From a virus (taxonomy: Duplodnaviria > Heunggongvirae > Uroviricota > Caudoviricetes), in IMG/VR virus record IMGVR_UViG_2874920711_000001: DNA of 40,896 nucleotides; one strand, written 5' to 3'. Shown here piece after piece: positions 37,681 to 40,293 of the stretch. The notes under the pieces were generated by a model. It was not told where the DNA came from and searched no databases. It saw only the letters and a program-made list of their open reading frames with translations. Position 1 is the first letter of the stretch. Every line of letters starts with the position of its first letter. A program made the translations under genes and the position numbers.

Positions 37681-37968
37681 ATGGCAATGAATCTTGTGAC
37701 ACTCAAAACGTGGGGAAAACTCAGATATCCGGATACCCCACCATCAATATCAACGCTGAGACGATGGGCAAGGAATGGAAACATTTATCCTGCACCTGAA
37801 CTACACGGGAGGAGTTACAGGGTGGTTCCGGAGGCTTTCTATATCAACCCAAATAAGGTTGATACCGATATAACACACCATCAGCCTAATGGGCGACAAG
37901 GGAGAGACAGTCCGTTAATGGAGAAGTTAAAACATGCAGCGGAAAAAATACGATCCCAATTTGCCTAG
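37681..37968 (+). CDS. xis: Putative excisionase (Xis)
   Basis: Small basic ORF immediately upstream of and overlapping the int start; ORF track lists a GTG-started version from 37672. Confidence 0.5.
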   Translation: MAMNLVTLKTWGKLRYPDTPPSISTLRRWARNGNIYPAPELHGRSYRVVPEAFYINPNKVDTDITHHQPNGRQGRDSPLMEKLKHAAEKIRSQFA

Positions 37969-38041
37969 AAACTTAACATATCGAAGGAGAGACAAAGCAT
38001 ATTACTGGCGCAACCCTCTGACGAAAGAAGAATTTACACTA

Positions 38042-39192
38042 AATAGCTGCGCGGAATAGTAGATCACTTTGAGGGAACTTAGCCCGGATTGTGCGATCTG
38101 ATCAATCGCCAAATCAAAACAAATCACCAACCGGACTGAGCAATGCCGATCATAGCACCAATTTCCCGTGACGAACGACGCCTGATGCAGAAAGCCATCC
38201 ATAAAACACACGATAAAAATTATGCCCGCAGACTGACTGCCATGCTGATGCTGCACCGGGCGACCGTGTCAGCGACGTTGCCAGAACGCTCTGCTGCGCC
38301 CGTTCCTCTGTTGGACGCTGGATTAACTGGTTCACGCAGTCGGGTGTTGAGGGACTGAAATCATTACCTGCCGGGCGTGCCCGTCGCTGGCCGTTTGAGC
38401 ATATCTGCACACTGTTACGTGAGCTGGTAAAACATTCTCCCGGCGACTTTGGCTACCAGCGTTCACGCTGGAGTACAGAACTGCTGGCAATAAAAATCAA
38501 TGAGATAACCGGTTGCCAGTTAAATGCCGGAACCGTTCGCCGCTGGTTGCCGTCTGCGGGGATTGTGTGGCGAAGGGCTGCGCCAACTCTGCGTATCCGT
38601 GACCCGCATAAAGATGAAAAGATGGCAGCAATCCATAAAGCACTGGACGAATGCAGCGCAGAGCATCCGGTCTTTTATGAAGATGAAGTGGATATCCATC
38701 TTCATCCCAAAATCGGTGCGGACTGGCAACTGCGCGGACAGCAAAAACGGGTGGTCACGCCGGGACAGAATGAAAAATATTATCTGGCCGGAGCGCTGCA
38801 CAGCGGGACAGGTAAAGTCAGCTATGTGGGCGGCAACAGCAAAAGTTCGGCGCTGTTCATCAGCCTGCTGAAGCGGCTTAAAGCGACATACCGTCGGGCG
38901 AAAACCATCACGCTGATCGTGGACAACTACATTATCCACAAAAGCCGGGAAACACAGAGCTGGCTGAAGGAGAACCCGAAGTTCAGGGTCATTTATCAGC
39001 CGGTTTACTCGCCATGGGTGAATCATGTTGAACGGCTATGGCAGGCACTTCACGACACAATAACGCGTAATCATCAGTGCCGCTCAATGTGGCAACTGTT
39101 GAAAAAAGTTCGCCATTTTATGGAAACCGTCAGCCCATTCCCGGAGGCAAACATGGACTGGCAAAAGTGTAGCGGTATTAAGCGCAGCTATT
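38042..39192 (+). mobile_element. IS630 (Tc1/mariner-type), 1151 bp, inserted at CTAG within int with TA duplication
   Basis: Ends AATAGCTGCGC.../...GCGCAGCTATT; TA at 38040-38041 and 39193-39194; removing it restores ACACTAGGTAAA in the int frame. Confidence 0.8.
38143..39172 (+). pseudogene. IS630 transposase with two 1-bp G-run contractions (38258-38260 and 39143-39144)
   Basis: N-terminal ORF 38143-38358 (MPIIAPISRDERRLMQKAIHKTHDKNYARRLTAMLMLHR) and the body in ORF 38547-39899, which then runs on into int. Confidence 0.75.
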
Positions 39193-40293
39193 TAGGTAAA
39201 ATTTCAAGAAGAGATGCAGTAGCGCAGGCAATTGAAGCAAATCATTATATATACAAAAACTACTCTCCTGCTGCCCTAATTGAAAAGCTTAAAGGGGTCG
39301 ACTCATTTACTATGGCAGACTGGATTGAACGTTACAAAACGATTCTTATAAGGAGAAAAGCGTCCAGAAATACTTATAAAACTCGGGTAAATCAACTGGA
39401 GACAATAAAAGAAAAATTAGGAGGGGTTTTACTGACAGAAATAACCACTCGCCATATCGCCGAGTTTCTTGATTTGTGGATTGAAGGAGGGAAAAACACG
39501 ATGGCAGGATCAATGCGTTCTGTGTTATCTGATATGTTCCGCGAAGCCATTGTTGAAGGACGTATATCTCAAAATCCAGTAACGCCAACAAGAGCACCGA
39601 AAATAGTAGTTACAAGAGAACGGCTGAAACTAAAGACATACAACTGCATCAGGGAGGCAGCAGATCAACTTCCGGCATGGTTCCCATTAGCTATGGACTT
39701 AGCCCTTGTAACAGGACAACGTCGCGAAGACATAACGAATATGCGGTTCAGTGATATTTATGATGATCGTCTCCACATCAGGCAAATTAAGACAGGAATG
39801 ATGATTGCTATCCCCCTGTCACTCAGCCTTCCTGTCGCTGGTTTACGACTTGGTGCAGTAGTTAAACAGTGCCGCATGGTAAGTAGGGGGATTATCTAAT
39901 CAGTGCCGGGATTAGAAAAAACAGCCCTGACGGCAGCATTCACCCGGACGGCCTGACAAAGAAATTTGTCGCAGCCAGAAAATTAACAGGTATCCTGTTC
40001 AGTGAAAACCCACCAACTTTTCACGAAATCAGAAGCCTGGCTGGACGATTGTACAAAGAAATATGTGGAGAAGAATTTGCTCAGCGTCTACTTGGCCACA
40101 CATCGGAGAAGACAACAAAAATGTATCTTGATGAGAGAGAAAAAACGTACTTACTGCTCTGATTTTAACGTAAATGGATTGTTAAATGTATTTTGGTTGT
40201 GATATAACCAAAAAAGACCGGAATACAGAAATTCGAGTAAATTTCGGGGAATTTCGGGGAAGCATTTGTAACTAATTGATTTCAAATGCAATT

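Follow-up and report, generated by a model that had tools for sequence, protein, structure and literature searches.

The window analysed here, a stretch of 40,896 nucleotides, carries a phage integrase gene (int; 37934–40162, plus strand, start codon at 37934 and stop codon at 40160–40162) that is interrupted by an insertion sequence, which raises the question of whether this single insertion locked a prophage into its host chromosome. The initial annotation had read the locus in this way, attributing the inactivation to IS630 and placing two single-base contractions within the element. No uninterrupted, translatable int is present in the window, and the gene is a pseudogene split by IS630.

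The inserted element (38042–39192, plus strand; 1151 bp in the assembly) was delimited by alignment to reference copies and by inspection of its flanks. It shares 99.4–99.6% nucleotide identity with annotated IS630 copies from E. coli genomes and pINV plasmids, with one silent substitution (C>T) compared to the pINV copy, and both of its ends coincide with those of the reference copies in the alignment. The terminal inverted repeats are imperfect (AATAGCTGCGCGGAATAGTAGATCAC compared to the reverse complement AATAGCTGCGCTTAATACCGCTACAC). The identity, together with the matching ends and the alignment to reference copies, confirms the assignment to IS630. All seven comparison copies are 1153 bp in length, and all seven are flanked by C-TA and TA-G; the two 1-bp run contractions account for the difference to the 1151 bp seen here, as the initial annotation had calculated. 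The transposase gene is co-directional with int. The reference transposase comprises 343 amino acids, with helix-turn-helix domains and a Pfam DDE_3 domain; in the window its reading frame is interrupted by two 1-bp gaps, while the same copy encodes an uninterrupted 343-residue protein in three other assemblies (L011, L013 and L014).

The element is flanked by TA dinucleotides at 38040–38041 and 39193–39194, in the context ACAC-TA-IS630-TA-GGTAAA. Three IS-free relatives (L009, L017 and L018) have a single TA at the insertion point (empty allele ACACTAGGTA), and both flanks in the window align to this empty allele with a 2-base overlap. Duplication of the TA and use of a CTAG target, both claimed previously from the flanks, are thereby demonstrated directly. 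[quoted passage not shown] CTAG is rare in the window, with 11 occurrences compared to approximately 159 expected from base composition, and of the 67 TA dinucleotides in int, only 2 belong to this tetranucleotide. Given this rarity, the placement of IS630 in a CTAG is not a matter of chance.

The 5′ part of int (37934–38041, plus strand) comprises codons 1–36, including the left TA copy (38040–38041), and is 100% identical to the corresponding region in relatives with an intact gene. As deposited, its reading frame runs on into IS630, giving an ORF of 41 amino acids (37934–38059). The 3′ part (39193–40162, plus strand) begins with the right TA copy and holds codons 37–358, encoding the remaining arm-binding domain as well as the core-binding and catalytic domains. 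To reconstruct the uninterrupted gene product, the IS and one TA were taken out and one G was put back at 39885. The resulting protein of 358 amino acids is identical to an uninterrupted integrase that occurs in 16 contigs and is named for S. boydii, and its domains could be assigned to Arm-DNA-bind_1 (PF09003, residues 4–61), Phage_int_M (PF22022, residues 90–169) and Phage_integrase (PF00589, residues 180–351). Lambda Int structures could be aligned to it along the entire sequence (E = 5e-71), and the catalytic R-K-H-R-H-Y residues are conserved. The cut falls between codons 36 and 37, equivalent to the lambda position ...EFGL/G, and all catalytic residues are encoded 3′ of it. The split had been described as lying after the arm-binding N-terminus, which needs correction: the break is inside the arm-binding domain, as delimited by PF09003. 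The further statement that the insertion alone abolishes full-length integrase stands, as IS630 separates codons 1–36 from the rest of the gene irrespective of any frameshift. The excisionase gene xis (37686–37968, plus strand; 93 amino acids from the ATG at 37686; Pfam Exc, E = 3e-14) is intact, and its 3′ end overlaps the start of int by 35 nt. The exact Xis protein was found in 55 contigs, where it is named excisionase.

Besides the insertion, three single-base gaps disturb the reading frames of the locus. Where the window has GGG in IS630 (38257–38259, plus strand), all four assemblies sharing its junction, like the reference IS630 copies, have GGGG; without the fourth G, the transposase frame is lost after codon 39. 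Further along the element, a CCC run (39140–39142, plus strand) is CCCC in every comparison copy, and the base absent here is placed at 39139. Finally, a GGGGG run in int (39885–39889, plus strand) is GGGGGG in E. coli (L001), in L009, in L011–L014 and in L005, an independent draft sharing the int allele of the window, so that int is frameshifted at approximately codon 268. The identical IS630–int junction with GGGG, CCCC and GGGGGG occurs in four assemblies (L011, accession CP027027.1, and L012, L013 and L014). In one of these, L013, the three gaps are the sole differences to window positions 37600–40560 (2,961 bp). Over 7.2 kb, the window differs from L011 by five 1-bp deletions, all in G/C runs, and three substitutions, with no insertions. 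Approximately 5 of 26 G/C runs of at least four nucleotides are contracted and none of 119 A/T runs, and among the three IS600::IS30 copies within the window, indels are confined to G4/C4 runs.

As four assemblies lack the gaps and the other indels in the window are likewise all contractions of G/C runs, the three frameshifts, two in IS630 and one in int, are almost certainly best read as consensus errors of the assembly. The homopolymer explanation offered earlier for the two IS630 contractions is thus borne out by the uncontracted junctions in L011–L014 and by the unaffected A/T runs. Judging from these comparisons, the organism itself most likely carries an intact 1153-bp IS630 encoding a 343-residue transposase, and int would be uninterrupted over its distal 322 codons. 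If the three deletions were instead real mutations of the strain, the IS630 copy would be dead, int doubly lesioned, and an ORF of 450 amino acids fusing transposase and integrase genuine. The deposited sequence does read so, the source record includes a gene call for the fusion ORF, and the 71-residue frameshifted N-terminus of the IS630 transposase is annotated in several other Shigella assemblies, including those of S. sonnei 53G and 4822-66, from which it follows that a genuine GGG variant of IS630 may circulate in other copies. However, none of the four same-junction assemblies has the deletions, one of them being otherwise identical over 2.96 kb. All other detectable indels in the window are G/C-run contractions too, and a pattern that spares A/T runs and includes no insertions suits consensus error better than mutation. 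We therefore regard real deletions as very unlikely.

Reading the gaps as consensus errors also settles the status of the 450-residue ORF (38547–39899), in which the transposase frame is joined to the int frame through the right inverted repeat. The fusion results from the C-run contraction at 39139 and is an artefact; its product was found in only one public contig, CP026824.1 (GCA_002949875.1), in which the window lies at approximately 127813–168708. That record appears to contain roughly one G/C-homopolymer deletion per 1–1.5 kb, and its frameshifts, fusion ORFs and “dead” IS copies are consequently not trustworthy at face value.

A different hybrid is encoded by the uncontracted assemblies. 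The right end of IS630 contains an outward-facing start (39153–39192, plus strand), with a GGAGG motif at 39143–39147 as putative ribosome-binding site, 5 nt upstream of an ATG at 39153, and the 14 residues that follow (MDWQKCSGIKRSYL) are in frame with int codon 37. Where the runs are uncontracted, this gives a hybrid ORF of 336 amino acids, made up of 14 IS630-derived residues and Int residues 37–358, for which there are gene calls in L011–L013; the exact protein was found in seven contigs under the name “integrase [Shigella dysenteriae 1012]”. Such a product could conceivably be expressed and have an activity of its own, for example in binding core sites, resolving junctions or interfering with a related integrase. 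Lambda Int without its N-terminal domain retains core-site binding and cleavage. The GGAGG motif and in-frame ATG would fit such a role, as would the conservation of the exact ORF in seven contigs and the location of every catalytic residue downstream of the cut, and since IS630 and xis are co-oriented with it, read-through transcripts would cover the ORF. On the other hand, an in-frame match is expected by chance in one of three cases, and sister lineages give no sign of selection keeping int, one having suffered a frameshifting 38-bp deletion. Arm-less lambda Int is not known to carry out attL × attR recombination. An active hybrid protein is on balance highly improbable.

Whether the broken integrase matters depends on the element in which it resides, a defective lambdoid prophage of approximately 39.8 kb (541–40291) that lies whole within the window; it occupies the sdsR/ryeA locus, with pphA on one side and yebY on the other. 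Window positions 3–540 are identical to the pphA–ryeA region of E. coli K-12, and the match to K-12 (pphA-ryeA-yebY) resumes at approximately 40292. A search of the window with 12-mers found no second att core, owing to two positions at which the cores disagree; both junctions were then located by alignment to the empty K-12 site. The int-proximal junction (40292–40318) has the core TAAAAAAAGACCGAATACGATTCCTG and corresponds to the 3′ end of sdsR/ryeB, and the distal junction (514–540) has the core TAAAAAGAGACCGAACACGATTCCTG, the two 27-bp cores having 2 mismatches. Rfam models identified a full-length SdsR_RyeB (40294–40393, minus strand) and SraC_RyeA (40290–40434, plus strand), and a fragment of pphA was recognised from a Metallophos domain match (4–384, minus strand). 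According to the account of Balbontin 2008 given in the review PMC7380047, the ryeA/ryeB locus is a phage attachment site, located within the last 23 bp of ryeB.

From its distal end, the prophage carries an IS600, the sRNA CssrB (a Shigella chromosomal sRNA, identified through Rfam), an ipaH3-like effector gene (2390–4105), tail-fibre fragments (4284–6048) and an IS600::IS30 composite, followed by genes for the portal protein (8953–10392) and the large and small terminase subunits, a TrkH-like fragment, and Rz, lysozyme and holin genes. Four tRNA genes, an antirepressor gene and further IS come next, and thereafter a DnaC-like gene, a cI-like helix-turn-helix gene, Rha, a RecE fragment and an AAA_24 gene. 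On the int side there is a second IS600::IS30 composite, followed by DUF1187, ralR/RalA, xis and the interrupted int. This order is colinear with that of a lambdoid prophage (int/xis/ralR, recombination, repressor, replication, lysis, terminase/portal, tail fibre), ending in the ipaH3-like gene. No capsid or tail genes were found between the portal gene and the tail-fibre fragments. The IS load exceeds 13 kb and consists of three 2.49-kb IS600::IS30 composites, two further IS600 copies, IS4/5-type fragments and IS630; two of the composites form direct repeats 28.5 kb apart. An 11-bp unit, AATTTCGGGGA, was considered as an arm-type integrase site and rejected, as its 17 matches (up to 2 mismatches) are not enriched over the 14.8 expected in shuffled sequence. 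Its position and variable copy number are the only suggestive features of this unit.

In the lambda paradigm, arm binding by Int is needed for attL × attR recombination, and excision uses Int together with Xis. As no full-length integrase can be made from the locus, excision by the element's own Int and Xis should fail, and the capacity for self-excision has presumably been lost. The prophage is nevertheless not an otherwise competent phage blocked at its integrase alone, since genes for capsid and tail are missing and three IS600::IS30 composites, along with more IS, are present. The break in int is one of many lesions and not the one that decides the matter, and the “lock” is over-determined, with head and tail genes gone and more than 13 kb of IS acquired. 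What remains is a prophage in decay that has retained ipaH, rather than a working phage held in place by one insertion. Nor is the lock complete: with xis and the two att junctions undamaged, a matching integrase could still work on the element if provided in trans, and the large IS repeats open other deletion routes by recombination between IS copies.

A conditional lock of another kind would arise if the insertion were a reversible switch, with IS630 leaving its TA-flanked site and thereby restoring CTAG and int. The transposase is intact (343 amino acids) in related assemblies, removal of the IS and one TA gives, with one G restored, an integrase identical to an intact one, and excision in the IS630 family proceeds by double-strand cuts (PMC2170065). 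However, resealing without precise repair would not be expected to give a clean CTAG, and no empty-site allele was found among the examined assemblies of the insertion-carrying lineage. Even with int restored, the head and tail genes would still be missing. A switch of this kind is thus extremely improbable, and the insertion is better regarded as one lesion among many in a decaying prophage.

Related lineages have lost functions of this prophage in other ways. Three relatives (L010, L015 and L016) have a 38-bp deletion in int between ATGATGAT repeats; complete S. sonnei genomes have an IS1 in the 3′ end of xis and an intact int; and in one S. sonnei-type genome the equivalent of window positions 4176–37607 is replaced by a single IS600, with ipaH kept. 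That different lineages disabled excision of the ipaH prophage differently (through IS630 or the 38-bp deletion in int, IS1 in xis, or loss of the interior) could reflect selection for fixing ipaH in the chromosome, with the arm-less 336-residue ORF as a possibly expressed and active by-product, although we consider that reading very unlikely. An independent IS630 insertion at the same CTAG in S. sonnei was also considered, as 22 draft contigs begin exactly at TA/GGTAAA. This was dropped as unsupported, since complete S. sonnei genomes show IS1 in xis with int intact, no S. sonnei version of the hybrid ORF was found in the protein collection, and the contig starts differ between isolates.

The locus is very probably explained by a routine IS630 transposition that was fixed in one Shigella lineage and split the int of a prophage now decayed, the frameshifts being assembly errors. 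The names carried by identical proteins point to Shigella dysenteriae. The host element is a lambdoid, ipaH-carrying prophage integrated in the last approximately 25 bp of sdsR/ryeB, between pphA and yebY. IS630, a DDE transposon of the IS630/Tc1/mariner kind, entered the TA of a 5′-CTAG-3′ at codons 36/37 of its lambda-type tyrosine integrase gene, with duplication of the TA, cutting off the first 36 codons, which encode the β-sheet part of the arm-DNA-binding domain. Left with no full-length integrase, the element should no longer excise by its own Int and Xis. Full of IS600, IS30 and other IS and without head and tail genes, it is a decaying remnant in which ipaH was kept. The insertion is in itself ordinary, textbook IS630 behaviour and a common type of gene loss in Shigella, and its junction has long been available in public genomes, with at least four other assemblies carrying it. 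The locus provides a clean example of the CTAG/TA target rule of IS630 and of Shigella prophage decay with retention of an ipaH effector; its main value lies in annotation and in the warning on homopolymer errors in this assembly, with little importance beyond.

Compared to known systems, the window copy resembles the IS630 of Shigella sonnei (GenBank X05955; IS630/Tc1/mariner superfamily) in the duplication of TA within CTAG and in its ends, which are the same as those quoted in PMC11544213 (CTAAATAGCTGCGCGGAATA and TATTAAGCGCAGCTATTTAG). It differs from that element in being 1151 bp long as deposited (1153 bp with the two contractions restored) and in having a transposase frame that is broken twice. 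The reconstructed Int shares its three-domain layout and catalytic residues with lambda integrase (PDB 1z1b, 1z1g and 5j0n; N-terminal domain 1kjk), and the arrangement of the locus is likewise lambda-like, with xis upstream and overlapping int and the attachment site directly downstream of int. Unlike in lambda, int is here split at approximately residue 37, and attachment takes place at the 3′ end of sdsR/ryeB rather than at the lambda attB. As summarised from Balbontin et al. 2008 in the review PMC7380047, PhiW104 of Salmonella DT104 is integrated in the last approximately 25 bp of ryeB/sdsR, as is the prophage described here. The 3′ end of the sRNA is restored by the phage in prophages at the ryeA/ryeB site, and Rfam still finds a full SdsR in the window. 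In contrast to PhiW104, the present element is a Shigella ipaH-carrying prophage, heavily degraded by IS and with a broken integrase. An IS630 copy in a CTAG of fliC in S. sonnei (PMC6811581) inactivates its target gene as the window copy does int, and the IS-driven degradation of prophages described by Bobay et al. 2014, in the form reported in PMC7380047, matches the locus in that IS serve as deletion substrates while a cargo gene is kept. Relative to the IS-driven pseudogenisation known from Shigella and other enterobacteria, only the gene that was hit, a prophage int, differs, and no new principle is involved.

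Loss of a functional integrase gene was found to have arisen by more than one route. In other lineages, represented by the comparison assemblies L010, L015 and L016, the same int allele carries a 38-bp deletion (equivalent to window positions 39768-39805), flanked by 8-bp direct repeats (ATGATGAT) and inactivating the gene through a frameshift following ...SDIYDD. This deletion is independent of the IS630 insertion. The neighboring excisionase gene has been hit in Shigella sonnei (53G, HE616528.1, positions 3735-4510), where IS1 lies in the 3' end of xis, at the equivalent of window positions 37913-37921, with a 9-bp duplication (CCGTTAATG). 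The int ATG follows 13 nt downstream. The insertion cuts Xis to 86 aa, and the 358-aa int reading frame stays open. In a related complete genome (L020, positions 1-3735), the prophage has been cut down to IS600-ipaH-IS600-xis'::IS1-int, so that ipaH has been kept and the phage genes are gone. In the window, positions 2079-4105 hold the corresponding cargo, an ipaH3-like gene encoding an E3-ligase effector of 571 aa with LRR and NEL domains, together with the adjoining CssrB sRNA.

The IS630 target in int, TA|GGTAAA (equivalent to window position 39193), is also the exact start of 22 S. sonnei draft contigs, and IS630 is absent from this site in complete S. sonnei genomes. One draft contig, L007, reaches 12 nt upstream of the target, into uninterrupted int sequence. 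Identity between S. sonnei and the window is 100% upstream of the site but only about 97% downstream, and the contig breaks may be due either to a mosaic boundary or to the presence of another, partial copy.

Two tandem copies of an 11-bp unit, AATTTCGGGGA, were found at 40240-40260, in the interval that separates the att core from the int stop codon. A single copy is present in L012 and L014, two of the assemblies sharing the IS630::int junction. L010 and L016 show a gap of 11 bases that is probably located at the same position. A resembling sequence, AATTTTCGGGAA, lies close to the distal prophage junction (676-687). These sequences may be arm-type integrase sites, but the 11-bp motif showed no statistical enrichment.

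A 2.49-kb composite, consisting of an IS600 with IS30 inserted in it, is present in three nearly identical copies, at 6033-8518, 23317-25807 (inverted) and 34577-37062. It has apparently spread as one unit, and the relative L009 carries a plain IS600 at the third position. Two of the copies, direct repeats at a distance of 28.5 kb, are potential deletion substrates. Comparison of repeat copies inside the window, and of the window with other assemblies, revealed systematic 1-bp contractions of G/C homopolymers (positions 7434, 23695, 24407, 25725, 35541, 37131, 38257, 39139 and 39885), with no insertions and no affected A/T runs in the same comparisons. These contractions break the IS30 transposase, giving 380 aa ending in ERVLH instead of 383 aa. 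The reading frames of int, of the IS630 transposase and of a short ORF around 37131 are broken as well.

Just upstream of xis, a small RalR-like toxin ORF (37359-37580, plus strand) lies opposite a full-length RalA antitoxin sRNA (37398-37576, minus strand; Rfam 207 bits). Two sets of isrK/C4-antisense RNA elements (17665-17749 and 19944-20046, minus strand; 30119-30306, plus strand) adjoin antirepressor-type genes (ORF6N, 17056-17613; Rha/Ash, 30196-30909), which suggests two P1/P7-style antirepressor control modules within a single prophage. With lysis genes on one side and terminase genes on the other, the prophage also harbors a 354-aa TrkH-family potassium-transporter fragment (13507-14571, minus strand; profile positions 3-354 of 502), which is reminiscent of trkG from the Rac prophage.
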